Shown piece after piece: positions 79-41,631 of a stretch of DNA of 41,782 nucleotides. The stretch comes from an uncultured Syntrophorhabdus sp. (GTDB lineage: Bacteria; Desulfobacterota; BSN033; UBA1163). A program made the translations under genes and the position numbers. How positions within the stretch are numbered: the stretch's first letter is position 1; every line of letters starts with the position of its first letter. Below the pieces are notes generated by a model. It was not told where the DNA came from. It saw only the letters and a program-made list of their open reading frames with translations, and made no database searches. The stretch spans positions 3,709 through 45,490 of the forward strand of contig CAZXBI010000001.1 in the NCBI GenBank assembly GCA_964638215.1, read 5' to 3'.

Positions 79-87
79 AAACCACTA

Positions 88-266
88 AGCTACAGGAGAG
101 ACCCCGAAGAGGGGCGCCGAAGGGGCAAGTTATAAGACGAAACTCTCAGGCAAAAGGACTGTAACTTATTTCAATCCTGGAAAGACCGAGGTGACAAGGC
201 TCGGGCACCGAAGGGGGCAAATCCCGAGTTTATCGAGGGATAATCTCTCAGGTCAAAAGACAGGAG
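88..266 (+). promoter_or_regulatory. Tandem glycine riboswitch (two aptamers)
   Basis: Aptamer 1: P1 is TACAG (91-95) paired with CTGTA (159-163), with conserved GGAGAG, GCCGAAGGGGCAA and CTCTCAGGCAAAAGGAC. Aptamer 2: P1 is TCCTG (176-180) paired with CAGGA (261-265), with GCACCGAAGGGGGCAA and CTCTCAGGTCAAAAGAC. These are the hallmark glycine-aptamer cores, joined by a short linker. Confidence 0.85.
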
Positions 267-308
267 GAAGGACAATCGCATTGAATTGTTCTTCCTCCTT
301 TTTGTTTT
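262..308 (+). terminator. Intrinsic terminator forming the riboswitch expression platform
   Basis: The stem pairs AGGAGGAAG (262-270) plus ACAAT (272-276) with ATTGT (285-289) plus CTTCCTCCT (291-299). It is followed by TTTTTGTTTT. The 5' arm overlaps the 3' strand of aptamer-2 P1, which fits a glycine-ON antitermination design. Confidence 0.75.
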
Positions 309-357: not shown

Positions 358-1656
358 ATGGGTTTGTATTCAAAAAAAAGTGAACGCATCGATACGGAAA
401 ATGCATTCAAGATCGGGCCTCAGATAAGGTCCATCGAGGAACAAGGGAAAAAGGTGATTAAGTGTAATCTGGGGGAGCCGGATTTTCCTGTCCCTGAGTT
501 TATCAAAGATGAGGTAAAAAGACAGCTTGACCTGGATAATACGCATTATTGTGATCCCCAAGGGGTTCTTTCTCTGCGGAAAGCCATTGCAAAACACCTC
601 AGTGAAACCCGGGGGATTCAAGCAACGGCTGACCGGGTCGTCGTCTTCCCCGGTGCGAAACCTCCCATCGGGTTATGCCAGCAGACCTATTGCGATCCAG
701 GGGATGAGGTGATTTATCCCAGTCCGGGTTTTCCCATCTATGAATCCTTTATTAAATATGTAGATGCCCGACCTTTTCCCATCCATTTGAGAGAAGAGAA
801 AAACTTCACTCTTTCGGGAGAAGATATCCAATCCTTTTTAACGAAAAAGACAAAGATGATCTTTCTCAACTTCCCCTCGAATCCTACGGGAGGGGTAGCC
901 TCCCTGGAACAACTTCGAGATATCGCTGATGTGATCCAAAGGCGAGGTTCAGAGGAGATTCGCATTTTTTCAGATGAAGTGTATGAGGACATTCTTTTTG
1001 ATGGGGCCAAACACCATAGTATCATCTCCTGTCCCGGGATGGAGAAGTTCACCATTTTGGTCAGTGGAGCTTCCAAGAGTTTTTCCTGGACGGGGGGGAG
1101 AATTGGATGGGCCCTCTTTCCAACCCTGGAGGAAGCCGAAGTCTTCAGGAATCTCAATATCAACTATTTCTCCTGCATCCCTCCGTACAATCAGGAGGGT
1201 GCTCGCCTTGCCCTGGAGTCGCCGCTCAGCCAGAATGCTATCCGCAGCATGGTGAATACGTTTCAGGAACGGAGGGGCATTGTCATCGATGGTTTGAATA
1301 GGATCAAGGGGATTCGGTGTCAGAAGCCAAAAGGAGCCTTCTATGTTTTCCCAAACATCGAAGAAGTTTGCAAGAATCTTGGGATTATAGAGGCATTTCA
1401 GAGTCTCCCCCCTGACCTGAGGCAGAGGACGAGCCCCTCAACCCTTTTCCAGATGTTTTTGCTATATGAGTATCAGGTAGCAACCATGGATCGAAAATCC
1501 TTTGGCCGTATTGGAACGGAAAACCTGCATTATTTGCGTCTCTCCTTTGCCACGGATACAGACTCTTTGAAAGAAGGATTGAGGCGACTTTCAATAGCCT
1601 CTCAAGATAAAAAAGGTTTCGGTCAGTTTTTCAAGAAGAGAGAGCATCTTTATTAA
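358..1656 (+). CDS. PLP-dependent aminotransferase, class I/II (aspartate/alanine-aminotransferase-like)
   Basis: 432-aa ORF. It has a typical fold-type I layout with the Schiff-base lysine motif SGASKSFSWTGGRIGW and an N-terminal NLGEPDFP motif. GAGGGA lies upstream of the ATG. Confidence 0.8.
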   Translation: MGLYSKKSERIDTENAFKIGPQIRSIEEQGKKVIKCNLGEPDFPVPEFIKDEVKRQLDLDNTHYCDPQGVLSLRKAIAKHLSETRGIQATADRVVVFPGAKPPIGLCQQTYCDPGDEVIYPSPGFPIYESFIKYVDARPFPIHLREEKNFTLSGEDIQSFLTKKTKMIFLNFPSNPTGGVASLEQLRDIADVIQRRGSEEIRIFSDEVYEDILFDGAKHHSIISCPGMEKFTILVSGASKSFSWTGGRIGWALFPTLEEAEVFRNLNINYFSCIPPYNQEGARLALESPLSQNAIRSMVNTFQERRGIVIDGLNRIKGIRCQKPKGAFYVFPNIEEVCKNLGIIEAFQSLPPDLRQRTSPSTLFQMFLLYEYQVATMDRKSFGRIGTENLHYLRLSFATDTDSLKEGLRRLSIASQDKKGFGQFFKKREHLY

Positions 1657-1715: not shown

Positions 1716-2693
1716 ATGAAATCAAGGGTCTTGATCAGCCAGAAAATCTTTGATGAAGTGGTGGCTATGGTTAGACAGCATTTTGAGGTCGATTGGAACC
1801 AGAGCGAAACGCCTCTCTCCCCATCTGTTCTGATTCAAAGGCTTCGGGATAAGATGGGAGCGATCATTTTGCTCACGGATCGAATTGATGAGGAGGTTCT
1901 CTCCCAATGTTCTGAGCTAAAGATTGTCTCGAATGTGGCAGTGGGATACAATAATATTGATGTTGAGGCCTGTACCCGTCGCGGGGTCATGGTGACGAAT
2001 ACCCCGGGTGTTTTGGATGATACGACGGCGGACTTGACCTGGGCCCTCCTTCTGGCTACCGCGAGGCGAGTCGTTGAGGCGGATCAATTCCTCCGTTCTT
2101 TGAAATGGAAAGGTTGGAAACTCATGGAATTTTTAGGCTACGATGTTCACCACAAGGTCATTGGCATCTGTGGACTCGGACGCATCGGACAGCGCGTGGC
2201 AAGGCGGGCCAAAGGATTTGAGATGCAGATCTTATATACCGACGTTATTCGAGCTGCTCCATCGTTGGAGGAGGAGCTGGGGGCCCGTTTTGTAGACAAA
2301 AAGACCTTGCTGGCAGAGTCAGATTTTGTGACACTTCATGTGCCGTTGACGCCTCAGACCGCGCACTATATCTCTATGACTGAATTTTCGATGATGAAAC
2401 CTACTGCAATTATGATTAATGCTTCTCGAGGTCCTGTGGTGGATGAGAAGGCTTTAGTCCAGGCATTAAAGGAGGGAAAGATCGCAGGAGCAGGGCTGGA
2501 TGTTTATGAAAGAGAACCAGAGGTCGAACCTGAGCTCATTGGGATGAAGAATGTTGTTTTGGCTCCACACATTGCCAGTGCTTCTCGTGAGACACGACTT
2601 CGGATGGCCACCATGGCGGCAGAAAACTTGGTAGCAGGGCTTACAGGAAAACGCCCTCTAAATCTGGTGAATGAGGAAGTGCTGAAATTGTAA
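1716..2693 (+). CDS. D-isomer-specific 2-hydroxyacid dehydrogenase, glyoxylate/hydroxypyruvate reductase (GhrB/TkrA)-like
   Basis: 325 aa. NAD(P) fingerprint GLGRIGQRVARRA. Catalytic-region motifs NASRGPVVDE and APHIASAS. Confidence 0.8.
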   Translation: MKSRVLISQKIFDEVVAMVRQHFEVDWNQSETPLSPSVLIQRLRDKMGAIILLTDRIDEEVLSQCSELKIVSNVAVGYNNIDVEACTRRGVMVTNTPGVLDDTTADLTWALLLATARRVVEADQFLRSLKWKGWKLMEFLGYDVHHKVIGICGLGRIGQRVARRAKGFEMQILYTDVIRAAPSLEEELGARFVDKKTLLAESDFVTLHVPLTPQTAHYISMTEFSMMKPTAIMINASRGPVVDEKALVQALKEGKIAGAGLDVYEREPEVEPELIGMKNVVLAPHIASASRETRLRMATMAAENLVAGLTGKRPLNLVNEEVLKL

Positions 2694-2834: not shown

Positions 2835-3488
2835 ATGAGCAAAGAAATCTACGATAAGTTAAGAGAATGTATTTTGGAGGGAGACGGTGAAGGACTCGTC
2901 AAGGCAACAGAGGCAGGTCTTTCACAAAAGCTTCAACCCATAACGATGATCGATAAGATGACCGAGACGATGAAAGAGGTTGGTCAGAGATTTGAGAGTG
3001 GAGAGTTTTTCCTTCCCGAAATGATCAAAGCGGCAGATGCATGGAAAAAAGCGATGGCGTCCTTGGAGTCCAAGATGAGTGCTGGGGAGATAGCGGAGAT
3101 AGCAAAGAGAAAAGCTGGTCGAATCGTTATTGGAACAGTGCAAAGCGACATCCATGATCTGGGAAAAAACATTGTGATCGCTTTTCTGAAGACGGTTGGG
3201 TTTGAGATCATGGACTTAGGGGTTGACGTTCCAGCATCAAAGTTCATTTCGGCAGCCGAGGAGTTTAAAGCCGATATCATCGGTATGTCTTCACTCCTGA
3301 CCACTTCAATGCCTTATCAAAAATCGGTGATTGAACACCTCACCGCGAGAAATCTGAGAAACAAATATAAGGTGATTGTGGGAGGAGGTCCGGTCAACCA
3401 GGCGTGGGCAGACACGGTCGGAGCCGATGGTTATGCCCGAGATGCAGTTGAAACTGCGAAACTTTGTTCAAGTCTAGTCAAAGGCTAA
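2835..3488 (+). CDS. Corrinoid (cobalamin)-binding methyltransferase protein, MtmC/MtbC/MttC-like
   Basis: 217 aa. It has an N-terminal helical cap followed by a Rossmann B12-binding domain with the His-on motif GTVQSDIHDLGKN (DxHxxG), plus SSLLTTS and VGGGP. A strong RBS (AAAAGGAGG) precedes the ATG. Confidence 0.85.
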   Translation: MSKEIYDKLRECILEGDGEGLVKATEAGLSQKLQPITMIDKMTETMKEVGQRFESGEFFLPEMIKAADAWKKAMASLESKMSAGEIAEIAKRKAGRIVIGTVQSDIHDLGKNIVIAFLKTVGFEIMDLGVDVPASKFISAAEEFKADIIGMSSLLTTSMPYQKSVIEHLTARNLRNKYKVIVGGGPVNQAWADTVGADGYARDAVETAKLCSSLVKG

Positions 3489-3512
3489 AACAGACTGGAA
3501 AGGAGATGGAAG

Positions 3513-4913
3513 ATGATTAGTTTCTCTGAAGTGGTCAGAAGGGCTCTAACGGGGCCGATCTGTTTGGAAAAAGAATTCGACATGGAGATTTTTGTCCCTG
3601 AACTGCAACGGGTGGTCAAGAAATATGAGATCAAATATGATCCGCAAAATCCGATTCCTTCCGATGATGCCTTGGCCGACCGTATCTTTGCGGCCGCCTT
3701 TGAATTCTACGCAAAAGTGGGAACATACTGCCTCGACAGCGAAAGAAGAATCCTGTTCACGGAAGAAGAGATCAGAGATGCTCTGGCAACAGCCAATGAA
3801 GGGGTCTGGCTGGGAGAAGGAAATGAACGAAGTTACTTAACATGGAGAAAACCTGAGAGCGACAGAAGGCCTTTCTGCTCGCTGGGGGCAGCAGGTGCCC
3901 CGGTTTCAACGGAGGATATTTTATTTAGAGTCGCGAGAGGTTTTGCCTCCATTCCCATTTCGAATGGAATGACCACCCCTGCCCTTACCATTATGGATGG
4001 CCAACGGACCATGGGAGGGAGCCCTCTGGAGATAGAGGCCTCCATCCGAACCGTCCAACTCGTCCGAGAGGCCTGCCGGCGTGCAGGAAAGCCGGGGCTG
4101 CCCATCATGAATGGAATCGCTACGGCCACGACCGCCACGGCGACCATTGCCGCGAGCCACTTTGGAATGCGCACCACAGATATCTGGGAACTGGGGGCCA
4201 TTGGTGAGATGAAGGTCAATTTCCAGCTTTTGAATAAAGCAGCTTACCTCCAGGCCTGGGGAGGAAACAGCCTTGCGGAAACGGGACCTTCCCTGGGAGG
4301 GTTTTGTGGGGGGCCGGAAGGCACATCGGTTGTCACGACGGCTTACCATCTTCAAGGCATCCTTGTCCACCGTTCGGTGTTCCAGCATCCCTTCACCATC
4401 CACTTCAAGTACCAATGTAACACGGGACGGGACCTGATCTGGGTCTTTGCCACCAGTAACCAGGCTTGCAGCAGGAACAGCCACTGGCCGGTTCTCAGTC
4501 TCATGTACACAGCCGGGGGTCCGATGACAGAAATGTATTTTCACGAGGCCACCGCATGGGTGCTAGCAGCAATCACGGGTGGGACGAATGTTGAGATCGG
4601 CGGCGTGGCAAAAGCAATCAATCCGGATCATCTTACTCCTATCGAACCCCTGTATGCCGGGGAGGTGGCGCTGGCAGCCGCTGGCCAGAAGATGACACGT
4701 AAACAGGCCAATGAGATTGCAAAGGCCCTCCTGCCCAAGTATGAGGATAAGATCAAAGGAGATCCTACGCTGACGATCGGGAAGAAGTATCAAGAACTCT
4801 ACGATATGGATACCTTGAAGCCATGCAGCGCATACGTCGACCTCTATCAACAAATGAAGAAAGAAATCGGCAAGATGGGAGTGAAGTTCCAGTATCATTT
4901 TCCTCTCAAATAA
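3513..4913 (+). CDS. MtmB-family (monomethylamine methyltransferase-like) protein, non-pyrrolysine form
   Basis: 466 aa, colinear with Methanosarcina MtmB as I recall it. Shared stretches include YC.D..RI..(F/Y)TEEEI.DA, AG(K/R)PG, P..GG(F/Y).GG.E.T, GP.TEM, and the C-terminal (F/Y)QE.YD..T..P block. There is no in-frame stop at the Pyl-equivalent site. The RBS AAGGAG precedes the ATG. Confidence 0.75.
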   Translation: MISFSEVVRRALTGPICLEKEFDMEIFVPELQRVVKKYEIKYDPQNPIPSDDALADRIFAAAFEFYAKVGTYCLDSERRILFTEEEIRDALATANEGVWLGEGNERSYLTWRKPESDRRPFCSLGAAGAPVSTEDILFRVARGFASIPISNGMTTPALTIMDGQRTMGGSPLEIEASIRTVQLVREACRRAGKPGLPIMNGIATATTATATIAASHFGMRTTDIWELGAIGEMKVNFQLLNKAAYLQAWGGNSLAETGPSLGGFCGGPEGTSVVTTAYHLQGILVHRSVFQHPFTIHFKYQCNTGRDLIWVFATSNQACSRNSHWPVLSLMYTAGGPMTEMYFHEATAWVLAAITGGTNVEIGGVAKAINPDHLTPIEPLYAGEVALAAAGQKMTRKQANEIAKALLPKYEDKIKGDPTLTIGKKYQELYDMDTLKPCSAYVDLYQQMKKEIGKMGVKFQYHFPLK

Positions 4914-5009: not shown

Positions 5010-5807
5010 ATGGCCACCCGTGAAGAAGTAAGGAAGCTTCATCCAACAGAGATCAGGAAACTTATTCGGAAGGGAGAATGGAAGGGATCCACAGAGGGGT
5101 GCGCATCAGAGTTTGCCCAAGCCAATCTGGCCATTTTACCTGCGAAAAACGCCTTTGATTTCCTTCTGTTCTGTCAAAGAAACCCTAAACCCTGCCCGGT
5201 ATTAGAGGTGACGGAACCGGGAAAATACCTTTTGAAGGACGTGGCTGAGGGGGCCGATATCAGAACGGATCTTCCCCGCTACCGAGTCTATGAGAAAGGC
5301 GAATGCGTTCGAGAAGTTGAGGACATCAAGGACTACTGGAAAGAGGATATGGTCGCGTTTCTCCTTGGATGCAGCTATTCCTTCGAGTGGTTTCTGCTCA
5401 AGTCCAATGTCCGGTTGAGACATATCGAGTTGGGGCAGGTCGTTTCTCTCTATATTACGAACATTGCCTGTAAACCGGCGGGGATCTTTAATGGCCCCAT
5501 GGTTACCAGTATGAGACCCATCCGCAGGGATCAACTCGTTCGTGCTATTCAGATTACTTCCAGGGTGCCTGCGGTTCATGGCGCCCCGATTCATGTCGGT
5601 GATCCCAAGAAGATCGGCGTGGATCTTTCGCGTCCAGACTTTGGCTGGAAGCCTGAAATGGAAGAAGATGATGTCCCTGTTTTTTGGGCTTGCGGTGTTA
5701 CCCCCCAAGCGGTGGCTATGAAGAGTAAGGTCGATTTCATGATCACCCATTCTCCGGGGTTTATGTTTATTACGGATGTTCGATCAGAGGACCTGGCAGT
5801 CTTCTAA
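5010..5807 (+). CDS. DUF1445/UPF0317 putative hydro-lyase (D-glutamate cyclase-like, YcsI family)
   Basis: 265 aa. The N-terminus (R.LIR.GEW.G.T.G......AQANL.ILP...A.DFLLFC.RNPKPCP) is characteristic of the YcsI / D-glutamate cyclase family. RBS AGGAGGG. Confidence 0.7.
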   Translation: MATREEVRKLHPTEIRKLIRKGEWKGSTEGCASEFAQANLAILPAKNAFDFLLFCQRNPKPCPVLEVTEPGKYLLKDVAEGADIRTDLPRYRVYEKGECVREVEDIKDYWKEDMVAFLLGCSYSFEWFLLKSNVRLRHIELGQVVSLYITNIACKPAGIFNGPMVTSMRPIRRDQLVRAIQITSRVPAVHGAPIHVGDPKKIGVDLSRPDFGWKPEMEEDDVPVFWACGVTPQAVAMKSKVDFMITHSPGFMFITDVRSEDLAVF

Positions 5808-5865
5808 ACGACGGGAGAGGTTGCTATGGGTTTGTTATCCCCTTTTCAACAGTGAGGAGAAAAAC

Positions 5866-6735
5866 ATGGAAAGAATGAGTGTTGCTGGTGCTATTGATCT
5901 TCATATCCATACAAATCCGGACTTGATCGATCGTATTGGCGATGACAGGGATATTGTCAGAAATGCCAGAGATGCAGGGATGTTGGGGGTGCAGCTGAAA
6001 GGCCACATGGAAAGCACGGTCAGCCGGGCCTACTTCATGAGCAAGGAATTCCCTGAAGTCAAGGTGTTTGGTGGAATTGTGTTGAACCGCTATGTGGGAG
6101 GGATTAATCCCCAAGCGGTGGAAGCGTCCCTCCGAAAAGGGGGAAAGAGCGTTTGGATGCCTACGGTGGATGCCAATTACCATGCGAAGAAGTATGGAAA
6201 AACGGGGCGCTATACGGTTCAGGAACTCGATGCCAAAGGAAGCGAAGTGGGCATTTGTGTTTTGGATGATGATGGTAAGCTGATCCCTGAAGTCCTCGAA
6301 GTTCTGGACCTCGTCGCCCAGTATGATGCCGTGCTTGGAACGTCCCACCTTTCACCTGAGGAGATCCTAAAACTAATTGACGAAGCCAAAAAAAGAAAAG
6401 TGGAGAAGATCTGTCTGACCCACCCCTTTGTGAAAGTCCCCGGGGTGGACCTCAACTTTTTGAAAGAGGTCATTCCCAAGGGCGTTTTTGCTGAATTCGG
6501 CTACTGCACGATCACTCCCATGTGGGCGGATGCAACGGTCGAGCAGAAAAAGGAGGCCATCAAAGCCTTGGGAGCCGAGCATTGCATCCTCGTTTCAGAT
6601 GGAGGGCAGATCCATAACCCGTGGCCCCATGAGGGGCTTCGGATATTCGCTCAATCCTTGCATGAAAAGGGCATCTTACCGAAGGAGATAGAGACCATGA
6701 TTATCCATAACCCCAGGCAGCTGATGGGGATTTAA
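5866..6735 (+). CDS. TIM-barrel metal-dependent hydrolase (amidohydrolase/PHP-like, DUF6282-like)
   Basis: The ATG at 5866 follows GAGGAG. The N-terminal IDLHIHTNPD metal-binding motif, an internal GTSH and a late LVSDGGQ resemble amidohydrolase-superfamily ligand positions. The longer ORF from 5776 overlaps the upstream gene and is unlikely. Confidence 0.55.
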   Translation: MERMSVAGAIDLHIHTNPDLIDRIGDDRDIVRNARDAGMLGVQLKGHMESTVSRAYFMSKEFPEVKVFGGIVLNRYVGGINPQAVEASLRKGGKSVWMPTVDANYHAKKYGKTGRYTVQELDAKGSEVGICVLDDDGKLIPEVLEVLDLVAQYDAVLGTSHLSPEEILKLIDEAKKRKVEKICLTHPFVKVPGVDLNFLKEVIPKGVFAEFGYCTITPMWADATVEQKKEAIKALGAEHCILVSDGGQIHNPWPHEGLRIFAQSLHEKGILPKEIETMIIHNPRQLMGI

Positions 6736-6742
6736 AAGATGA

Positions 6743-8500
<1,758 letters not shown>

Positions 8501-8530
8501 TAATTCATCCTATGAGTTAAGGAGTTGTCC

Positions 8531-8848
8531 ATGGAAGAGAGACTGATCCATGCGAAAGTTCATCGACATACGCCGGGAGATAAAGAGAAGAGATACGATG
8601 TGTTCAAGGTCCCCCATAGTCTCGGAATGACGGTCCAAATCCTGCTTCGCTATATCTACGAAAATATAGATCCCACGCTGGCATTCAGGGATTATCGGTG
8701 TGGCCAGGGAATCTGTAATACCTGTCAGATCAAGGTGAACGGAAAGGTGATTCGATCATGTGAAACTCCCGTCCAATTAGGGCAGGAGGTTCTTCTGGAA
8801 CCGGCCAATGATCTCGTCATCAAAGATTTGGTCGTTCAGCCTGACTGA
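8531..8848 (+). CDS. Small [2Fe-2S] protein corresponding to the N-terminal domain of SdhB/FrdB only
   Basis: About 106 aa. Cys spacing CGQGICNTCQIKVNGKVIRSC is C-x4-C-x2-C-x11-C, as in the SdhB 2Fe-2S domain. It has no 4Fe-4S/3Fe-4S cysteine clusters. RBS TAAGGAG lies 6 nt upstream of the ATG. Confidence 0.65.
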   Translation: MEERLIHAKVHRHTPGDKEKRYDVFKVPHSLGMTVQILLRYIYENIDPTLAFRDYRCGQGICNTCQIKVNGKVIRSCETPVQLGQEVLLEPANDLVIKDLVVQPD

Positions 8849-8881
8849 ACTTATTCATGTTACCATTCATTTATGTGATAG

Positions 8882-9280: not shown

Positions 9281-9414
9281 TTCCATAGGAAATATTCGGA
9301 CAACTCCTGTTCCCTGCTTTATTGCAACAAAACAGAGGGACAAGGGGCAGATGGATGGTATGGTTTACCGGATTGAGGAGAACAATTTTGAATTTCGAGA
9401 AAGGAGGAGGTATC

Positions 9415-10533
9415 ATGAGAAAAATCTGTTTGATCGTGGGAATCTGTTTTGGCATTTTCTGTTGGGCTCAGGGGCCACTTTTTGCGGCGGGCGAAGTTGT
9501 TAAAATCGGGAAACCTGCTCCAATCTCTGGAGGAGGTGCGCAAACGGGAATTCCGCAGGTCGAAGGAGCAACCCTCGCTGTCGAGGATCTAAACGATAAG
9601 GGAGGGGTGAAAGGGATTAAATTTGAGCTGGTTGTGGCTGATGGGAAATGTGGTCCCCTGGATGCGACTTATGCTGGGGAACGTTTGGTGATGCAAGATA
9701 AGGTAGGTGCGCTATTAGATGGACTGTGCAGCAATGCGACGATGGCGCTTATTCCCATAGCCGAAAGGGAGAAAGTGTCCCTGGTGGTTGAGGAGTCATC
9801 TGCTGATGTAATTACCGAAAAGCTGAACCCCTATGTTTTTCGAACCGCTCCCAACAATTCACAGATTGCCCAGTTGCTGATAAACGCCATCGCCTTTAGC
9901 AAAGTGAAAAATCTTGCCTTTCTCTTTGAACAGACGGACTGGGGAAAAGGAGGGGCAGAATCTGTCTCGAAGCTCGCCAAACAGTTAGGGATCAATGTAG
10001 AATTGATTGCAGTCGACCGATCTCAGACCAACTTCTTACCCATTATTAGCTCAATGAAGGCCAAGAATGTGGATGGCGTTTTAATCATCATGTTGATCCC
10101 CCAGGGAGTTCAGTTTCTAAAGCAGGCGCGGGAAATGAATTACAAAGCCCAATGGTTCGGTTTTCAGCAAATGATGAGTAAAGAAATGTATGACCAGGCA
10201 GGTGAGGCCGCAGAGGGCTTAATGGGACATAGTCCTTTTGAAGTTACGAACAATCCGATGAGCATAGCTTTTGCCAATAGCTATGATAAGAAATATAAGC
10301 GGTCTCCCTCCCACTATGCCGCACACTCCTATGACGGAGTCATGCTTATTGCGGAGGCGGTCAAGCTTTATGGACCTACCCGTGAGGGAATCTTAAAAGG
10401 ATTAAAGGAGATCAAAGACTTCAAGTGCTTGACCGGTATGATCAATTTTGACGCTCGTCAACAGGTTATATCGGAAGGCAAGCCCGGTTTTGTGGTTAAG
10501 TGGTCGAAGGGCAAAAAAGAGATCATGAAATAG
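9415..10533 (+). CDS. ABC transporter periplasmic substrate-binding protein, LivK/PBP1 family (divergent paralog, SBP1)
   Basis: Signal peptide MRKICLIVGICFGIFCWAQGPLFA, followed by the type-I PBP fold signature (VKIG....SGG.A..G, F.....DWGKG). RBS AAAGGAGGAGG. It lies directly upstream of the permease genes. Confidence 0.8.
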   Translation: MRKICLIVGICFGIFCWAQGPLFAAGEVVKIGKPAPISGGGAQTGIPQVEGATLAVEDLNDKGGVKGIKFELVVADGKCGPLDATYAGERLVMQDKVGALLDGLCSNATMALIPIAEREKVSLVVEESSADVITEKLNPYVFRTAPNNSQIAQLLINAIAFSKVKNLAFLFEQTDWGKGGAESVSKLAKQLGINVELIAVDRSQTNFLPIISSMKAKNVDGVLIIMLIPQGVQFLKQAREMNYKAQWFGFQQMMSKEMYDQAGEAAEGLMGHSPFEVTNNPMSIAFANSYDKKYKRSPSHYAAHSYDGVMLIAEAVKLYGPTREGILKGLKEIKDFKCLTGMINFDARQQVISEGKPGFVVKWSKGKKEIMK

Positions 10534-10754
10534 GAGCGCGATTGGGAGATCAGGGAGATCAGTGGAACGGGTTCGAATTCAGGTCTTCCTCTATTATAGT
10601 TGACTTTCGAGATGGGGAGTCTGAAAGAACTTGGCCCCCGATTTCAGGGTAAAGACGATCATCGAGAGACATGACCTCAGCCTTCATAGTGAAAGGGGGG
10701 GGCCATGTCTCTCGGGTTAAGCAGGTAGCTTATTGTAGACGGAAGGTAAGAGAA

Positions 10755-11630
10755 ATGGAGCAGATTGTTTCCCAGCTAATGAATGGTCTCGTTATGGGGA
10801 GTGTTTATGCGTTGGTTGCCTTAGGTCTTACCTTGATCTATGGGATTTTGGAAATCATCAATTTGGCCCACGGCGAGTTGTATATGATTGGCTGCTACCT
10901 ATCTTTTTTTCTCTTTACGAAATATCAACTTCCTTACGCTGTGAGTGTCCTCCTATCTATGATCATATGTGCCGTATTGGGATTTATTATGGAAAAATTG
11001 GTCTTTCGTCCCCTCCGAATGGCGCCTAAAGTCAATTCCTTAATCAGCGCCCTTGGGCTTTCTATTTTCTTATCGAATTCGGGCCTCATTCTCTGGAGCG
11101 CGACTCCTCGATCCTATTCAACGCAGTTATCGCAAAAAGTCTTATCTTTTTGGAACATTTCCTTTTCTTTCCAAAGAGTTTTGATCTTTGGGATTGCCGT
11201 AATTCTTATAGGGTTCTTTATGCTTTTCATTAAAAGGACTTATGTAGGAAAGGCGATGCGAGCCCTTGCCCAAGATATGGAGGCCGCCAGTTTGATGGGG
11301 GTTGATATCAACCGGGTGTCGGCAGTCACATTTTCCCTTGGTTCAGCTCTGGCGGCTGCTTCGGGCGCACTAGTGGGACCACTCGTAACTCTTGAACCCT
11401 ATATGGGGCTTGAAATGGGAATCAAAGCCTTTGGTGTGGTCATCATGGGTGGCTTCGGTAATATCCAAGGGACGATCGTGGCAGGGTTTATTATTGGCCT
11501 TGCAGAGAGTCTTGGGGCGGCGGTGATTTCTCCGGCATTAATGAATTCGGTGGTGTTCAGCATCATTATTATCGTTCTAATTTTCCGACCAACTGGAATA
11601 TTCAAAGAACACGTAGAGGAGAATGTTTGA
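10755..11630 (+). CDS. livH: Branched-chain-amino-acid-type ABC permease, LivH family
   Basis: The N-terminus Q.L.NGL..GS.YAL.ALGLTLIYG....INLAHGE is canonical for LivH. The protein is multi-pass hydrophobic. The ATG at 10755 is preferred over the 10671 ORF start. Confidence 0.8.
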   Translation: MEQIVSQLMNGLVMGSVYALVALGLTLIYGILEIINLAHGELYMIGCYLSFFLFTKYQLPYAVSVLLSMIICAVLGFIMEKLVFRPLRMAPKVNSLISALGLSIFLSNSGLILWSATPRSYSTQLSQKVLSFWNISFSFQRVLIFGIAVILIGFFMLFIKRTYVGKAMRALAQDMEAASLMGVDINRVSAVTFSLGSALAAASGALVGPLVTLEPYMGLEMGIKAFGVVIMGGFGNIQGTIVAGFIIGLAESLGAAVISPALMNSVVFSIIIIVLIFRPTGIFKEHVEENV

Positions 11631-11632
11631 GC

Positions 11633-12652
11633 ATGGCCTTATCGAGACAACAGATCAGCCATTGGGTCATCAGAATTGGGTTTTTCCTTTTCTTGTTTTC
11701 TGTCCCAGTGTTCATTGACAACCCCTATTACTTAAGGATTCTTATTATTGGCGGAATCACCATCTTTCCAGTTTTGGGACTGAATCTCTTGACAGGGGTC
11801 ACAGGACAGCTATCGATCTGCCAAGCCGGCTTCTATGGCATTGGAGCTTATACGTCCGCCTTGCTGGTGATGAAGCTCCATCTATCCTTTTGGTTGTCGT
11901 TACCTCTGGCTACTCTTTTTGCAGGATTAATTGGGTTCAGTCTTGGGATTCCTTCTCTACGATTTAGAGGCCATTATCTTGTTATTGTCACTATCGGTTT
12001 TACGATTATCATCTATGAGGTTTTCTTAAACTGGGTTTCTGTCACACGTGGTCCCATGGGAATTATTAATATTCCGCCACCCGATGCCCTCTTAGGAGTG
12101 TCCTTTGGGTCTCAGAAAGCCTACTATTTTCTTTGCCTCCTACTTGTTCTATTAGGTATCTGGGTCATGCGGAAGATCTATCTCTCGAAATGGGGGCTTG
12201 CATTGCTTGCAATCCGAGAAGATGAAACCGCCGCAGAAATCATGGGAATTGACATTGTGAAATATAAGCTGCTTTCTTTCACCGTGAGTGCTCTTTATGC
12301 AGGTTTTGGAGGAAGCCTTTTCGCCCATTATCTTAGAATATTATCACCCGATTTGTTTACACTATCTGAGTCGGTCAATTACCTTCTCATGATTGTTATA
12401 GGAGGGATGGGAAACATACCCGGTGCTGTTTTCGGGGCGTTTTTTGTTACTATCATATCAGAATACTTAAGGTTCCTCATGGCCTATCGCCTGGTGGTTT
12501 ATGGGCTTGTTTTGATCGTTGTCATCATTTTCCTACCCCTGGGCGTGGCTGATTTCTTGAAAAAATTAAAAGATCTATCTTTTGCAAGACGCGTGGAGAC
12601 TGAGAGTGTTCCGTCTCCCGGTCCTGCAGGATCATCTAACCGCCGAACCTGA
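11633..12652 (+). CDS. livM: Branched-chain-amino-acid-type ABC permease, LivM family
   Basis: Hydrophobic multi-pass protein with LNLLTG.TGQLS.CQAGFYGIGAY, typical of LivM. It abuts or overlaps the livH stop. An alternative TTG start at 11627 is possible. Confidence 0.8.
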   Translation: MALSRQQISHWVIRIGFFLFLFSVPVFIDNPYYLRILIIGGITIFPVLGLNLLTGVTGQLSICQAGFYGIGAYTSALLVMKLHLSFWLSLPLATLFAGLIGFSLGIPSLRFRGHYLVIVTIGFTIIIYEVFLNWVSVTRGPMGIINIPPPDALLGVSFGSQKAYYFLCLLLVLLGIWVMRKIYLSKWGLALLAIREDETAAEIMGIDIVKYKLLSFTVSALYAGFGGSLFAHYLRILSPDLFTLSESVNYLLMIVIGGMGNIPGAVFGAFFVTIISEYLRFLMAYRLVVYGLVLIVVIIFLPLGVADFLKKLKDLSFARRVETESVPSPGPAGSSNRRT

Positions 12653-12668
12653 ATCAAGGGTATAAGAC

Positions 12669-13424
12669 ATGGAACTTTTGAAAATCGATGGTGTAACAAA
12701 AACTTTTGGAGGGCTATGCGCCATTTCGAATCTAACCTTTTCAGTTAACAAAGGTGACATTCTCGGAGTCATTGGACCCAATGGGGCAGGGAAGACAACC
12801 TTATTCAACTTGATCAGTGGCGTATATTCTCCTTCAGGGGGGGACATCGTTTTTGATGGAAAATCAATTGTTGGATTGAAACCCCATAACATTTGTCAAC
12901 AGGGTATTGCGAGGACTTTTCAAAAGATTCGCCTTTTTCAAAAATTGTCGGTTCTTTCAAATGTACTGGTTGGGATTTACAACTGGGATCTCCTGTCTTT
13001 AGAAAAAAAAGGGGCAAAGAATTTAGACGGCGGAAAAATTATGGACCAGGCAGAAGAGATACTCCGACATGTAGGTCTTGAAAAGAGAAAAAAAGATTTG
13101 GCGAGAAACCTTTCCCATGGAGAGATGAGGCTTTTAGAGATTGCTAGAGCTTTGGCTACAGGACCCAAGATTCTTCTCATGGATGAACAGGCCTCTGGAT
13201 TGAGTTCCCATGAGATCGATAACCTAAAAAGACTAGTTCTTGAGATAAGGGACTCTGGGATTTCTGTTTTGGTCATTGAACATTTGATGGATTTTGTCAT
13301 GGCTCTTTCTGACCGAATAATTGTTCTTAATCACGGAGTTAAGATCTGTGAGGGAACTCCCGAAGAGATTCAAAATGATCCCAATGTGATCAGCGCCTAC
13401 CTCGGAGTGGAGGTTCAATCGTAG
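12669..13424 (+). CDS. livG: ABC transporter ATP-binding protein, LivG family
   Basis: Walker A GPNGAGKTT, signature LSHGEMRLLEIARAL, and Walker B LLMDEQASG (an unusual Q where P is expected). Confidence 0.85.
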   Translation: MELLKIDGVTKTFGGLCAISNLTFSVNKGDILGVIGPNGAGKTTLFNLISGVYSPSGGDIVFDGKSIVGLKPHNICQQGIARTFQKIRLFQKLSVLSNVLVGIYNWDLLSLEKKGAKNLDGGKIMDQAEEILRHVGLEKRKKDLARNLSHGEMRLLEIARALATGPKILLMDEQASGLSSHEIDNLKRLVLEIRDSGISVLVIEHLMDFVMALSDRIIVLNHGVKICEGTPEEIQNDPNVISAYLGVEVQS

Positions 13425-14153
13425 ATGTTAGAATTAAAGGAAGTTTATTCGGGATACGGTTTGATCGATGCTGTAAAAGGAGTTTCAATTCATGTGTCTG
13501 AAAATAATGTCGTCTCCCTAATTGGTGCCAATGGAGCAGGGAAGACTACCACTCTGAAAACGATCTCCGGATTAATCCGGTCAAGAAGAGGGAATATTTC
13601 CTTTTTGGGGGAAAATGTTTCTCACCTAAAACCCTTTGAAATCGTAAAACGGGGAATTACCCAAGTGCCCGAAGGAAGAAGATTATTCGGGAAAATGTCT
13701 GTTTATGAAAATATGGAGATGGGAGGATTCTCTCAAAAAATCCGGAAAAACAACGGACAGGAGATTAATCAACTGATGGACCTCTTCCCTATTCTCAGGG
13801 ACCGACGGAATCAAATCGCGGCGACCCTGAGCGGTGGAGAGCAGCAGATGCTTGCTATTGGCCGGGCATTAATGTCGAAACCGCGTTTGTTGCTCTTGGA
13901 CGAACCTTCTTTAGGGTTGGCCCCGCTGATCATCAGCGAAATTTACAGGGTTATAAAAAATATCCAAGCAAAAGGGACTACGATCTTGCTCGTCGAACAA
14001 AACGCCAACCTTGCGCTGAAATTATCTCATCGGATTTACATTATGGAATTTGGGAAAATCATTGCAGAGGGGGCCCCGGAAGAACTGAAAAAGGACGAAA
14101 TTATCTTAGAGGCATACCTGGGGAAGAAGCGGAGAATATTAGAGACTCTTTAA
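13425..14153 (+). CDS. livF: ABC transporter ATP-binding protein, LivF family
   Basis: Walker A GANGAGKTT, signature LSGGEQQMLAIGRAL, Walker B LLLDEPS. The start is directly adjacent to the livG stop (TAGATG). Confidence 0.85.
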   Translation: MLELKEVYSGYGLIDAVKGVSIHVSENNVVSLIGANGAGKTTTLKTISGLIRSRRGNISFLGENVSHLKPFEIVKRGITQVPEGRRLFGKMSVYENMEMGGFSQKIRKNNGQEINQLMDLFPILRDRRNQIAATLSGGEQQMLAIGRALMSKPRLLLLDEPSLGLAPLIISEIYRVIKNIQAKGTTILLVEQNANLALKLSHRIYIMEFGKIIAEGAPEELKKDEIILEAYLGKKRRILETL

Positions 14154-14166: not shown

Positions 14167-14671
14167 ATCTTATTAGACAGGGGCCTCAAGGCTCAGGATA
14201 TTTTGGAGAAGGGGCTCCTGGCCGGCATGGATACGGTTGGAGAGCGATTTAAAATGTGCGAAATGTTTATTCCCGAGGTGCTTCGTTCGGCCAAGGCCCT
14301 GCATAGCGCGATGAGTCTTCTCAAACCTTTTCTCTCTGAGAGCGACACAGCAGGGGCCGGAACGGTGGTTATCGGAACCGTTGAAGGAGACCTTCATGAC
14401 ATTAGGAAAGAACCTCGTCGGCATGATGCTTGAGAGGGCTGGATTCAGGGTGGTCGGTTTGGGAATAAACGTGAGGCCTGAAGCTTTTTTCGATGCAGCA
14501 AAGGTGCACCAGCCAGAGATTGTTGCCATGTCGGCCCTCTTGACGACTACCCTGCCGAAAATGAAAGAGACGATCGAGGCCCTCGAAGAGGCCTCGGTCC
14601 GCGAAAGGGTCAAGGTCATGGCCGAAGGAGCTCCGAAGCTGCTTCCTTTGCCTGCCTTTGGGTTGGAATGA
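14167..14671 (+). pseudogene. Frameshifted, N-terminally truncated corrinoid (B12)-binding protein
   Basis: Frame A (14203-14433) reads ...GMDTVGERFKMCEMFIPEVLRSAKA...VVIGTVEGDLHDI and then runs to a stop. Frame B (14381-14671) continues GKNLVGMMLERAGFRVVGLGINV...MSALLTTTLP...VKVMAEGAP. Deleting one A near 14403 restores GDLHDIGKNLV (DxHxxG). The N-terminal cap is shortened and the C-terminus looks degenerate. Confidence 0.7.
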
Positions 14672-14730
14672 ATCATCCTAACTCTCCGGCAAAGCCGGAA
14701 ATTTTAAAACCAAATACACAGAAGGAGAAA

Positions 14731-16191
14731 ATGAAAACGCAACGAATCAAACCTGACAATCACGATGAATGGCCATTTCTTTCTCTAAGGGATTATTTAG
14801 CTTTTCTGGATAAACAGAATCGTTTGCTTCATGTGGATAAAACGGTCGATGCAAGATTGGAGATTTCGGCCATCTCTCATAAGCTCTTCAGGGAAGGCTC
14901 AGACAAGGCCTGTATCTTCTGGAACACGACATCCACTCAACAAGATTGGCATGTCAGCTCCCCTTACAATGCAGTGGTGGAAGGGGTCCACCGTCATATG
15001 AGGATGTTTGAAGATATTTTCAAAGTCCCCAGGGAGAAGATATATAATAACTGGTTTGACCGAATGATGAAGCTTTATGATCCGGTCATTGTCAAAGATG
15101 CACCGTGTAAAGAGGTTGTCTTGAAAGGCGATGATGTCGATCTTCAAAAGATTCCGGTTGAATTCTGTACCCCTAACCAGGGAGGCCCTTTTATTACCAT
15201 GGGGGTATGTTTTCTCAAACACCCCGACACAGACGTGCAAAATGTGGGGGTGTACCGGCTCCATGTAAAAAGTAAGAACCATACAGGAATTTTGATCGTT
15301 CCCCACCAGCATAGCGCCACTATTTATGCCAAGTATGGCGTGTTGGGGAAATCAATGCCGATGGCTGTTGCCATTGGGACCGATCCCCTGCTCCCGATCG
15401 TGGGGGCCGCGCCTTTCCCAGTGAACACGTCGGAATTAAGGGGATGGGGGGCCCTCCAAGGTCGCCCCATGGAGATGGTGAGATGTGAAACCATTGATAT
15501 GCTGGTTCCAGCGCAGGCGGAATATATCCTGGAAGGAGAGATCCTGCAGGATGTGAGGGATATGGAAGGACCTTTTGGAGAGTATACAGGTTTTTATTCA
15601 GGCGTCCGCGACCTGCCGGTATTCAAGGTCCACTGTATTACCCACCGCAAAGATCCCATCTATGAGACAGTGAATATTGGGAAACCTCCTAGTGAAGGAA
15701 ATTCATTGACGGAGATGGGCTTTGGTCTTGAGCTGGCCCGGGGGGTAAGGGAGTATGTGCCTGAGGTAACGGGTGTTCGATCCATGATGGCTCACGGACT
15801 TGTCACCGTGATCCAGATCGATAAAAAAAGGCGATACAAAGGGATGGCCATGCGGGCAGGCAACATGGTGTGGACCATGAAGTCCCATGTGAAACAAGTA
15901 TTTGTGATTGATGATGATATCGACATCTGGGACAACGATGATATCCTTTGGGCCTTTGCCACACGGTGTCAGGCCAACAAGGATATTGTAATGATTCCAA
16001 ATGTTTCGGGCGTTCGGCTGGATCCTTCAGAACCTCATGGCGGGGAAGAAGGGTTGAGCTGCAAACTGATCATGGATTGTACAGAACCCTTCCCACCGCA
16101 GCATGCTCCCTATATGAGAGGGGTTGCTTTTCCGGATAGTGGGATGCTTGAGAAGGTGAAGAAGGACTGGGACCAGTATTTTAAACCTTGA
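14731..16191 (+). CDS. UbiD-family (prenylated-FMN-dependent) (de)carboxylase
   Basis: About 486 aa from the ATG at 14731 (RBS GAAGGAG). The UbiD-like N-terminus is LSLRDYLAFLDKQNRLLHVDKTVDARLEISAI. Central GPFITMG and FGEYTGFY motifs are also present. Confidence 0.8.
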   Translation: MKTQRIKPDNHDEWPFLSLRDYLAFLDKQNRLLHVDKTVDARLEISAISHKLFREGSDKACIFWNTTSTQQDWHVSSPYNAVVEGVHRHMRMFEDIFKVPREKIYNNWFDRMMKLYDPVIVKDAPCKEVVLKGDDVDLQKIPVEFCTPNQGGPFITMGVCFLKHPDTDVQNVGVYRLHVKSKNHTGILIVPHQHSATIYAKYGVLGKSMPMAVAIGTDPLLPIVGAAPFPVNTSELRGWGALQGRPMEMVRCETIDMLVPAQAEYILEGEILQDVRDMEGPFGEYTGFYSGVRDLPVFKVHCITHRKDPIYETVNIGKPPSEGNSLTEMGFGLELARGVREYVPEVTGVRSMMAHGLVTVIQIDKKRRYKGMAMRAGNMVWTMKSHVKQVFVIDDDIDIWDNDDILWAFATRCQANKDIVMIPNVSGVRLDPSEPHGGEEGLSCKLIMDCTEPFPPQHAPYMRGVAFPDSGMLEKVKKDWDQYFKP

Positions 16192-16200
16192 ACGGACAAA

Positions 16201-17788: not shown

Positions 17789-17810
17789 ATGATGAGGATT
17801 TTGATCGAGC

Positions 17811-21781: not shown

Positions 21782-22825
21782 ATGGCACATAAAAAAGAAC
21801 TAAACGGAAGAGAGCGAGTATTCCGAGCCTTATCCTTTCAGGAGATAGACCGGGTGCCGGTGATCCCGGTGACTCATTCCTGCTCGCCAAAGAAGACAGG
21901 TTACCTTCATGGTGAGGCGATGCAGGATACGTGGAAGTATGTTGAATCCCAGCTCAAGTGCCTTGAGATGTTTGGTTACGATGGCGTCTGGGGCATGGCG
22001 GTGAATGAAGTGGCCGAGGCTCTGGGCTGCGAGGTCGTTGTTCACCCCGACGATGTTCCTGACGAAAGAAACGGCCTTCTGACAAATGAACGGGATCTTA
22101 CCAGGCTTGCAGAACCGGATTTCAATCGATCCATCTGGATGAACCGCAAGGAGGAAGTGGTTCGACAACTTAAGAAGGAAACTGGAAAGCGGGCGGTCGT
22201 TATTGCTCCTGCGATCACTCCCATTCGGGCTGCTGTGATGACGAGAGGAATCCAGAATTTCTTCCTGGACTTCATCGATGCCCCGGGGTTCAGCAAGGAT
22301 CTTTTGGAAATCTGTACTCGCCATTGTATCACCGCGGCCAAGCGCTTGGCTCAATCCGGAGCCGACTTTCTCTTCTTCCCTCTTCCAGAGGCCTCCCGAG
22401 ACATGATTTCAAGAGCCCATTACGAAGAATTCATCCAGCCCTGTATGAAGAAGATCATGAAAGCCATGGAAGATGAGGGGATCAAAACACTCCTTCACAC
22501 CTGTGGAAACTGGAGTGATCGTTTCGGTCTGGCCGCTGGTCTCAAGCCAGACATTATTCAGTTGACCGCAGAGGTTGATTTGAGATCGATTAGAATGGAA
22601 CTGGGGAATAAAATTGGCCTTTTTGGAAAGATTAACTCGGTGGGAACTCTGTTTCAGGGCACGCCAGAGGCCGTGAAAAGCGAAAGCAGGGAGAACATCT
22701 CGGATGCGGACGGAATGCGAGGGGGATTCATTCTCGCATCCGATTGCGCTGTGCCCAGAGATACTCCAGTTGTCAATATTCAGGCGATGGTTGATGCGGC
22801 GCGGGAATTTGCAGAGAGGCAATAA
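21782..22825 (+). CDS. Uroporphyrinogen-decarboxylase-fold methyltransferase (MtaA/MtbA/CmuA or O-demethylase MT-I type)
   Basis: 347 aa. The N-terminus ERVFRALSFQEIDRVPVIP is typical of corrinoid-dependent URO-D-family methyltransferases. Putative Zn ligands are LLHTCGN (H-x-C) and a later SDCAVP. There is no obvious SD sequence. Confidence 0.65.
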   Translation: MAHKKELNGRERVFRALSFQEIDRVPVIPVTHSCSPKKTGYLHGEAMQDTWKYVESQLKCLEMFGYDGVWGMAVNEVAEALGCEVVVHPDDVPDERNGLLTNERDLTRLAEPDFNRSIWMNRKEEVVRQLKKETGKRAVVIAPAITPIRAAVMTRGIQNFFLDFIDAPGFSKDLLEICTRHCITAAKRLAQSGADFLFFPLPEASRDMISRAHYEEFIQPCMKKIMKAMEDEGIKTLLHTCGNWSDRFGLAAGLKPDIIQLTAEVDLRSIRMELGNKIGLFGKINSVGTLFQGTPEAVKSESRENISDADGMRGGFILASDCAVPRDTPVVNIQAMVDAAREFAERQ

Positions 22826-40660: not shown

Positions 40661-40670
40661 GAGAATTGAG

Positions 40671-41534: not shown

Positions 41535-41631
41535 AGAATTGTTATCGAAAGCAGTCCTGTAATGGGATGATTGATCAACCGATAGGTATATTGAATGCGT
41601 TGGAATGAGAGGGTGGAGGGAGCGGACAAGG

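Follow-up and report, generated by a model that had tools for sequence, protein, structure and literature searches.

The 41,782-nt stretch of DNA analysed in this study (positions 3,709 to 45,490 of contig CAZXBI010000001.1, assembly GCA_964638215.1, from an uncultured Syntrophorhabdus sp.; hereafter the window, meaning its full 41.8 kb) carries near its left end two adjacent genes that encode a corrinoid protein and a homologue of MtmB, the monomethylamine methyltransferase of methanogens, without pyrrolysine (Pyl). By homology, the pair represents a predicted first methyltransferase (MT1) of MtmB fold, lacking Pyl, together with its DxHxxG corrinoid carrier. Coordinates refer to the window, in which all family-matching genes lie on the + strand. 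The two genes are:

2835..3488, +, cognate corrinoid (B12-binding) protein of MtxC type, 217 aa (PF02607 and PF02310, DxHxxG motif)
3513..4913, +, MtmB-superfamily methyltransferase (MT1), pyrrolysine-free, 466 aa (PF05369, MtmB1 match, AlphaFold2 fold)

Open reading frame (ORF) 3513–4913 encodes a full-length, Pyl-free member of the MtmB family. Its match to PF05369 spans profile positions 5–449 of 450 (275.4 bits, cut-off 25; E=1.1e-81), and a HMMER search of PDB sequences aligned it with the MtmB1 chains of Methanosarcina barkeri (1tv2, 1l2q) at E=6e-50; its identity to MtmB1 is 26–27%. Both ORFs lie where the initial annotation, made without database searches, had placed them, and its proposal of colinearity with MtmB is upheld by these matches. 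All of the motif blocks it listed are visible in the HMMER alignment with MtmB1 (YC.D..RI...TE.EI.DA, AG(K/R)PG, GG.xGG.E.T, GPxTEM and QExYD). No stop codon interrupts the ORF, and codons ATG-AAT (nt 4107–4112) specify M199-N200. The column of Pyl202 falls on N200 according to HMMER and on M199 according to MAFFT, an ambiguity of a single residue, and the claim that Pyl is absent and that sense codons occupy its place stands. An AlphaFold2 model built with 17 homologues as input (predicted local distance difference test, pLDDT, 89.6; predicted template modelling score, pTM, 0.91) was compared with solved structures using Foldseek. It superposed on MtmB (1nth) with template modelling (TM) scores of 0.92/0.94, a root-mean-square deviation of 1.8 A, E=7.6e-41 and 26% identity, while MttB and MtgB gave TM scores of only ~0.5. 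The two checks suggested beforehand, a search with the profile hidden Markov model of the MtmB family (full-length match above the gathering score) and superposition on the M. barkeri enzyme (TM 0.92–0.94), thus agree. The loop directly after Asn200 (residues 201–205, nt 4113–4127) is the sole stretch of the model with pLDDT below 50, and to judge from the model it may be a mobile, substrate-gating loop.

The corrinoid protein consists of a B12-binding_2 cap domain (PF02607) and a Rossmann-type B12-binding domain (PF02310), and its DxHxxG motif reads DIHDLG (residues 105–110). It scores below the cut-off of every substrate-specific NCBIfam model (MtgC of glycine betaine systems, 195 bits against a cut-off of 310; MtbC of dimethylamine systems, 183 against 350; TIGR02370, 181 against 215), and is therefore described here as an MtxC-type protein without an assignable known specificity. 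Its gene is separated from that of the MtmB-like protein by a 24-nt spacer with a GGAGA ribosome-binding site. Pyl is held to be necessary for the activation of methylamine. Family membership, the absence of Pyl and the presence of a cognate-type corrinoid partner together make a substrate other than monomethylamine likely, as had been argued earlier.

A search of 1.84 billion representative proteins, clustered at 50% identity, gave 1,028 clusters matching the MtmB-like protein at E<=1e-3, and 215 at E<=1e-30. Most of these are full-length and 26–45% identical to the window protein; AGRPG is conserved across them, and the residues that follow it vary widely. In the protein's own subfamily all 117 close homologues have Asn at the Pyl-aligned column, within the motif ...PGLPIMN[G/S/C].... 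The pair had been put forward as a candidate novel system without any characterised non-Pyl MtmB relative. The first of these descriptions needs qualifying, non-Pyl MtmB homologues being a known, large and diverse superfamily, and the second is outdated by the publication of MtqB in March 2026 (PMC13044021). The pair is an uncharacterised addition to this already known class.

Scanning one genome per GTDB species for the subfamily motifs yielded 44 loci, all in metagenome-assembled genomes (MAGs), from Chloroflexota, Bathyarchaeia, Methanomethylicia, Thermoleophilia, Aminicenantes, Desulfobacterales and others. In most of these the MtmB homologue is directly preceded by a corrinoid protein gene, and tandem MtmB paralogues are frequent. 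The pairing of an MT1 with a DxHxxG corrinoid protein, recognised in the initial annotation, recurs with the same gene order in nearly all 44. At one locus, L045 (10001–11377 of a long-read MAG; 53% identity, weak E-value), an in-frame Pyl codon was considered and rejected, as the sequence has many frameshifts and stops; this homologue is a pseudogene, or else its breaks stem from indel errors in the assembly.

Clades were defined by clustering the 117 closest full-length homologues. Clade 1 (P0001–P0008) is held together by at least 72% identity, and clade 3 (P0009, P0010, P0012, P0016, P0019) is its sister group, at 52–57% identity. The clade as a whole (at least 52% identity) is drawn from MAGs and metagenomic contigs, and its sole close named locus, L002, belongs to a Thermodesulfobacteriota MAG and is 80% identical. 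Besides the window, gene contexts were retrieved for L002, L047/48, L049, L050/51, L052/53, L054 and L055. The genes of the window that matter for this comparison are:

5010..5807, +, D-glutamate-cyclase family / UPF0317 (YcsI-like) protein, putative hydro-lyase (PF07286, NF003969)
5875..6735, +, DUF6282 protein with HxH motif, probably an amidohydrolase-superfamily hydrolase (PF19799, E=2.5e-67)
6785..8500, +, SdhA/TfrA-like flavoprotein, true start probably near 6806 (PF00890, PF02910)
8525..8848, +, small 2Fe-2S protein (Fer2_3; compare the N-terminal domain of SdhB), partner of the flavoprotein (PF13085, E=1.7e-18)
9322..14153, +, Liv-type ATP-binding cassette (ABC) transporter: binding protein, two permeases, two ATPases (PF13458, PF02653, PF00005)
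14668..16191, +, UbiD-family decarboxylase, prenylated-FMN type (PF01977)
38360..41782, +, nicotinate-dehydrogenase-like (Ndh-like) Mo hydroxylase: fused L+M subunit 38360–40660, FAD subunit 40671–41534, 2Fe-2S subunit from ~41638, which runs off the window

The UPF0317 protein was assigned from its matches to PF07286 (E=9e-60), NF003969 (399 bits, above cut-off) and PDB 3db9 and 2pif (E=4e-78), and a literature search on YcsI/DUF1445/UPF0317 found nothing relevant. The DUF6282 protein has no significant solved homologue by sequence, the best being TatD-like at E ~0.5, and a literature search on DUF6282 found no papers. An HxH motif is typical of amidohydrolase-superfamily enzymes, and it is this motif, together with the gene context, that leads to the assignment as a hydrolase. 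The flavoprotein is a divergent member of the SdhA/TfrA/NadB group, with TfrA as its best NCBIfam model (414 bits, below cut-off). Between the Fer2_3 gene and the transporter, ORF 8951–9280 matches just the C-terminal third of LamB/YcsF (5-oxoprolinase subunit PxpA) and is probably what remains of a longer gene; the PxpA genes of Bacillus are clustered with ycsI, which encodes the UPF0317 protein there. The closest solved relative of the UbiD protein is 6h6v, which we take to be the furandicarboxylate decarboxylase HmfF, although the PDB record names merely a related decarboxylase.

The neighbourhood of the pair is conserved within clades 1 and 3. A DUF6282 gene stands beside the MtmB homologue in all seven of their informative contexts, which come from independent contigs (the window, L002, L047/48, L049, L050/51, L052/53 and L054), and the SdhA-like flavoprotein and Fer2_3 protein occur in six of the seven. 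The flavoprotein is conserved at 50–70% identity in L002, L049, L050, L052 and L054, and in the related loci the Fer2_3 gene always follows it. A D-glutamate-cyclase/UPF0317 gene or domain is present in each of the six clade-1 contexts, while both clade-3 contexts have an Asp/Glu-racemase/Amdase-family gene instead. A UbiD gene, with products 77% identical, is shared by the window, L002 and L052, the last of which also has UbiX. A xanthine dehydrogenase (XDH)-family Mo hydroxylase adjoins the cluster in L002 and L050. The window, L002 and L050 share a class I aminotransferase, L049, L050, L052 and L055 have a helix-turn-helix (HTH)-cupin regulator, and a LivK-type binding protein follows the cluster in L054 as well. 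These conserved neighbours are missing from all 40-odd loci of the other MtmB clades; the commonest genes there encode MttB, class III aminotransferases and aldehyde:ferredoxin oxidoreductases, and occasionally RACo or MtrH.

Two of these loci carry additional features. In L047, nt 5469–9917 encode a 1,482-aa fusion of hydantoinase/oxoprolinase A and B domains with a D-glutamate-cyclase, directly upstream of a 75%-identical MtmB orthologue. In L050, a gene for a non-Pyl MttB-family protein and its own corrinoid protein (nt 15955–17982) lie within the MtmB-homologue cluster, which suggests that the two methyltransferases act in sequential demethylations of one compound.

The Mo hydroxylase of the window is closely related to the split subunits encoded beside the L002 cluster (Mo subunit 66% and FAD subunit 56% identical). 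Against PDB sequences, its Mo subunit scores 373 bits with NdhL and 248 bits with NdhM of Eubacterium barkeri, and 400 bits with 4-hydroxybenzoyl-CoA reductase, while NCBIfam ranks the PucD xanthine dehydrogenase model first (625 bits, below cut-off). Given the NdhL and NdhM scores and the top-ranked PucD model, the safe label is an N-heteroaromatic hydroxylase of the Ndh/PucD group. The split Mo subunit of L002 scores 354 bits with NdhL and 201 bits with the next best structure, and has the same L/M split as E. barkeri. A trace of another copy is seen in ORF 17943–18341 (132 aa), in which the first 84 residues of an NdhL-like subunit (65% identical to residues 1–84 of the L002 protein) are joined to the last 40 residues of a 2Fe-2S subunit. 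This ORF is what an internal deletion has left of a second Ndh-like operon, which lay nearer to the pair.

Homologues of the DUF6282 protein also occur apart from any methyltransferase. They are 55–57% identical and were found in a Moorellaceae genome (L056, module at 6051–12566), a Chloroflexi MAG (L057, 4355–12549) and a third genome assembly (L058, 7295–8897), and no MtmB gene is present at these three loci. The neighbours there are an Asp/Glu-racemase/Amdase-family gene, an Fe-S reductase of DHO_dh type (or an SdhA-like/Fer2_3 pair) and a split Ndh-like hydroxylase 52–61% identical to that of the window, with PucR-type regulators and Liv transporters nearby. By analogy, this module would follow the logic of reductive N-heterocycle catabolism, with a hydroxylase, a ring reductase and a cyclic amidohydrolase, and in its form without MtmB it is a candidate for an uncharacterised N-heterocycle degradation pathway. 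In clades 1 and 3, a putative demethylase module is joined to it.

Upstream of the pair, the window has the following features:

83..299, +, glycine riboswitch (RF00504): aptamer 83–171, terminator-like expression platform 262–299
358..1656, +, class I aminotransferase of Asp/aromatic type (PF00155; best PDB matches 1dju, 1gd9)
1716..2693, +, D-2-hydroxyacid dehydrogenase resembling glyoxylate/hydroxypyruvate reductases (PF02826, PF00389)

The riboswitch is genuine (69.9 bits at 83–171), with a promoter-like site at 50–78 and a hairpin followed by a T-run at 262–299; a permissive Rfam scan of nt 1–400 gave no second glycine aptamer at E<=0.01. The pair had been placed one transcription unit downstream of it. 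The riboswitch part of this claim is sound, but the separation may not hold, since no terminator was found in nt 2693–2835, between the dehydrogenase gene and the corrinoid gene, and the pair may therefore share the transcription unit of the riboswitch, with possibly the whole cluster under its control. The aminotransferase belongs to the cluster, since L002 has a 54%-identical orthologue just ahead of its corrinoid gene. The dehydrogenase scores 414 bits with the glyoxylate reductase model NF009714 (cut-off 455) and is absent from the orthologous loci, and Rfam found no riboswitch at the orthologous loci L001 and L002. An Asp/aromatic aminotransferase and a glyoxylate-reductase-like dehydrogenase behind a glycine riboswitch (50–2693) form an unusual regulon, glycine riboswitches more often controlling glycine cleavage genes.

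Two further features of the window are related to methyl transfer:

14173..14635, +, frameshifted remnant of a second MtxC-type corrinoid-protein gene, just upstream of the UbiD gene (tblastn)
21782..22825, +, methyltransferase of the MtaA/CmuA family with uroporphyrinogen-decarboxylase (URO-D) fold, the sole candidate in the window for a second methyltransferase (MT2) (PF01208)

The large ORFs of the 41.8-kb window include no RamA, no RACo domains and no pterin-binding MT2 (PF00809), in agreement with the earlier statement that a RamA-type activase and an adjacent MT2 are lacking. That statement needs one qualification, the MtaA/CmuA-family gene, which lies 17 kb from the pair with linkage unproven, and whose product scores below cut-off with NF004889 (156 bits) and TIGR01463 (149 bits). 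In L052 a pterin-binding MT2 gene (Pterin_bind) is found 1.5 kb upstream of the pair. The corrinoid-protein remnant consists of two tblastn pieces in different frames, ~40% identical to MtxC, and has been split by the gene caller in L001. No tRNA genes were found in the window.

Compared with MtmB of M. barkeri (1nth, 1l2q, 1tv2), the window protein shares PF05369 over its full length, the TIM-barrel fold, the AGRPG, GGxxGGxE and GPxTEM motifs and the adjoining gene for a DxHxxG corrinoid protein. It differs in having Met199/Asn200 in place of an in-frame UAG/Pyl codon, in the low level of identity (26–27%), and in having neither MtbA nor RamA encoded nearby. MtmB is from a methanogen, whereas the nearest named relative of the window protein is from a bacterial (Thermodesulfobacteriota) MAG. 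Its substrate is almost certainly not monomethylamine.

The closest functional precedent differs in other ways. MtqB of Methanococcoides methylutens Q3c, a non-Pyl MtmB homologue, was shown to take tetramethylammonium and choline as donors in the methylation of cob(I)alamin (Kashyap et al., Front Microbiol, March 2026, PMC13044021), and is a precedent for a Pyl-free MtmB homologue as an active MT1 on a permanently cationic N-methyl donor. MtqB and MtqC resemble the window pair in belonging to the Pyl-free part of the superfamily and in having the corrinoid gene immediately upstream, but they are archaeal, pass the methyl group to coenzyme M via MtqA/MtbA, and branch near the Pyl-containing MtmBs (PMC13044021). 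The gene neighbourhood of the window clade is entirely different; MtqB is here set apart by its published description, not by sequence. A second bacterial protein of this superfamily without Pyl, Ga0180325_111810, was noted in 2022 in 'Ca. Formimonas warabiya' DCMF, where no other protein was induced as strongly on dichloromethane (PMC9768040). It has an evident role unrelated to monomethylamine, but is ~30% identical to MtmB-family proteins and stands in another context (PMC9768040). The non-Pyl MttB superfamily (among others MtgB for glycine betaine, MtcB for carnitine, MtpB for proline betaine) offers a parallel, in that a Pyl-free paralogue has been re-targeted to another N-methyl compound and works with an MtxC-type corrinoid partner; the window corrinoid protein scores best with MtgC models. 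These enzymes belong to PF06253 rather than PF05369, and the window model has a TM score of ~0.5 to MttB and MtgB.

For the surrounding genes, the nearest known parallel is nicotinate catabolism in E. barkeri, which reportedly (Alhapel et al. 2006) proceeds via the NdhFSLM hydroxylase, 6-hydroxynicotinate reductase and an enamidase. Points in common are the resemblance of the Mo hydroxylase of the cluster to NdhL/NdhM, the split L and M subunits in L002, and the succession of hydroxylase, ring reductase and cyclic amidohydrolase. In the window-type clusters, the reductase (SdhA-like or DHO_dh-like) and the hydrolase (DUF6282) come from other families, and E. barkeri has no demethylation step. 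Among the window ORFs there is no B12 mutase, dimethylmaleate or other E. barkeri pathway gene besides the Ndh-like hydroxylase. The likeness is one of pathway logic, not of membership.

Taken with this context, the explanation we favour, tentatively and at slightly less than an even chance, is that the pair demethylates an N-methylated N-heterocyclic carboxylate of the trigonelline/homarine type, or the N-methyl amino acid formed when such a ring is opened; for any single named compound our confidence is much less. The donor is proposed from gene context, and an N-heterocycle in particular because the module of hydroxylase, ring reductase and DUF6282 also occurs without a methyltransferase. 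Further points in its favour are the NdhL match of the Mo hydroxylase, the heteroaromatic dicarboxylate decarboxylase that we take to be the closest solved relative of UbiD, and the Asp/aromatic class of the aminotransferase. Following the established MtxB/MtxC mechanism, the Pyl-free TIM-barrel MT1 would transfer the methyl group of a methylated nitrogen compound to Co(I) of the corrinoid protein; an MT2 encoded elsewhere would unload methyl-Co(III), most likely onto tetrahydrofolate, and a RamA-type enzyme, also encoded elsewhere, would provide reductive reactivation. To our knowledge, every characterised non-Pyl MtxB uses permanently cationic quaternary amines. Trigonelline and homarine are the lead candidates because they too are permanent cations. 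In earlier work on anaerobic methylotrophy, trigonelline is mentioned as one possible 'as-yet unknown aromatic methylamine' (PMC10805028), and a literature search for corrinoid-dependent demethylation of trigonelline or homarine found no such system reported.

Demethylation of a pyridinium betaine would yield nicotinate or picolinate, on which the Ndh-like hydroxylase could act. More speculatively, homarine might be converted via picolinate and 6-oxopipecolate to 2-aminoadipate, the last two being homologues of 5-oxoproline and glutamate, and such a 2-carboxylate route would give roles to the D-glutamate-cyclase and racemase proteins and to the Asp-type aminotransferase. The opposite order is equally possible: the ring could be hydroxylated, reduced and opened first, and the MtmB homologue would then demethylate an N-methyl amino-dicarboxylate. 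What is left of the carbon skeleton would become a lactam or amino-dicarboxylate, from which the aminotransferase would form a 2-oxo acid. A stronger version, which we regard as rather unlikely though worth stating, has the MtmB protein of the clade open a hitherto undescribed anaerobic route for the breakdown of aromatic or heterocyclic N-methyl osmolytes, among them trigonelline and homarine. Its methyl product would enter C1 metabolism via the corrinoid protein, and the demethylated ring would be hydroxylated (Ndh-like enzyme), reduced (a novel SdhA-like/2Fe-2S reductase) and opened (DUF6282) to give an amino-dicarboxylate.

Several observations weigh against the heterocycle explanation. 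Gene context gives a pathway theme and not a methyl donor, and the claim of a substrate for the whole clade, which we infer, stands on that context. For DUF6282, the SdhA-like protein and the UPF0317 protein, the functions suggested here are guesswork. Models of PucD-type xanthine dehydrogenases fit the Mo hydroxylase about equally well, so that purine or pyrimidine substrates are possible as well. In the window the Ndh-like genes lie 33 kb from the pair and the nearer copy has decayed (17943–18341), no XDH-family gene occurs within 10 kb in L047 and L052, and the downstream nicotinate enzymes of E. barkeri type are absent from the window. Finally, a glycine riboswitch heads the cluster in this window only, and the heterocycle model leaves it unexplained.

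The most probable alternative is that a free N-methylated acidic amino acid is taken up, i.e. N-methyl-D/L-glutamate, N-methyl-D/L-aspartate, or N-methylproline via N-methyl-5-oxoproline, and that the Glu or Asp released is processed by the racemase or cyclase, the NadB/SdhA-like flavoprotein and the Asp-type aminotransferase. The immediate neighbours do come from Asp/Glu-type families (D-Glu cyclase/UPF0317, and in clade 3 the Asp/Glu racemase), with a flavoprotein of the SdhA/NadB family and an aminotransferase of the AspAT class close by. The PxpA fragment, the hydantoinase/oxoprolinase–D-Glu-cyclase fusion of L047 and the Liv-type amino-acid transporters would fit as well, and the MttB homologue of L050 could carry out a preceding betaine demethylation. 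We nevertheless consider this alternative unlikely, because it leaves the recurrent Ndh-like hydroxylase, UbiD and DUF6282 unexplained, as well as the existence of the DUF6282–hydroxylase–reductase module without a methyltransferase.

The initial annotation had suggested instead that the substrate is an N-methyl amino acid such as sarcosine. The pair would then be a sarcosine:corrinoid methyltransferase, the product of which, glycine, would act on the riboswitch and be consumed by the aminotransferase and the glyoxylate reductase. The genuine riboswitch, the lack of a terminator between the riboswitch-led genes and the pair, and the membership of the riboswitch-controlled aminotransferase in the cluster (its 54% orthologue being upstream of the corrinoid gene in L002) all fit this proposal. 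So do the aminotransferases frequently found beside other MtmB clades, as expected for a primary-amine product of demethylation, and the hydantoinase A/B genes of L047 could supply sarcosine from N-methylhydantoin. The survey of neighbourhoods of non-Pyl MtmB homologues that had been recommended bore out the corrinoid pairing but, in place of a sarcosine link, brought to light a conserved cluster of ring-catabolism type. Locus L002, at 80% identity, has no such riboswitch, the order riboswitch–aminotransferase–reductase occurs in no other orthologous context, and other orthologous loci use HTH-cupin regulators. Moreover, the aminotransferase is of the Asp/aromatic class and not glyoxylate/glycine-specific, and DUF6282, the SdhA-like/Fer2_3 proteins, the D-Glu-cyclase or racemase, the Ndh-like hydroxylase and UbiD take no part in the metabolism of sarcosine or glycine. 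In addition, sarcosine is a secondary amine, as opposed to the quaternary substrates of every characterised non-Pyl MtxB. The conversion of sarcosine to glycine is accordingly improbable, though kept here as a lesser alternative; the wider suggestion, that the substrate is some N-methyl amino acid, may still hold.

An MtqB-like tetramethylammonium/choline:corrinoid methyltransferase is less probable again, despite the shared superfamily, the absence of Pyl from both proteins and the same arrangement of the corrinoid gene (PMC13044021). The MtqB clade is reported near the Pyl-containing MtmBs, whereas the window protein is just 26–27% identical to MtmB1; the motif scan gave no Methanococcoides locus, which suggests, indirectly, that MtqB lacks the signature motifs of the subfamily; and a ring-catabolism cluster stands where choline, TMA or BCCT-transporter features would be looked for, none of these being found nearby. 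A genuine Pyl-independent monomethylamine methyltransferase, as implied by the Pfam family, by the NCBI name of the 80% orthologue ('monomethylamine:corrinoid methyltransferase') and by the trace monomethylamine activity of MtqB (PMC13044021), is very improbable. The neighbourhood has nothing related to methylamine, the Pyl position is taken by Met or Asn, with Asn in all 117 close homologues, and the activation of methylamine is considered to require Pyl. A route from methylamine that dispenses with Pyl and runs via N-methylglutamate was rejected, as the clusters have no GMAS or N-methylglutamate-synthase genes. A purine or methylxanthine route yielding glycine or sarcosine, which would explain the riboswitch, and for which a PucR regulator in L056 was noted, is a minor possibility, as no formiminotransferase or imidazolone enzymes are present.

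The remainder of the window carries three XDH-family hydroxylase sets (23024–26822, 33076–36730 and 38360–end), a second SdhA-like flavoprotein (36747–38321) and a Mo enzyme of the dimethyl sulfoxide (DMSO)-reductase family (19627–21714). Five LivK-type binding proteins and two Liv ABC transporters are encoded in the window, four of the former and the second of the latter within nt 14668–41782. The + strand coding, the XDH-family sets and the Liv genes suggest that the window is a catabolic island.

Just one function has been demonstrated for non-Pyl MtmB homologues, as against ~1,000 matching clusters at 50% identity, and the public name 'monomethylamine methyltransferase' would wrongly credit MAGs of sulfate reducers and Chloroflexota with the use of methylamine. 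The neighbourhood of clades 1 and 3 is conserved, previously undescribed and informative, and so makes the question of the substrate testable with a short list of compounds. If the heterocycle explanation is true, abundant plant and marine osmolytes (trigonelline, homarine) would be tied to anaerobic methylotrophy, and DUF6282 and a bacterial UPF0317 protein would acquire their first functions. Corrinoid-dependent methylotrophy would then extend to the 'aromatic methylamines'.

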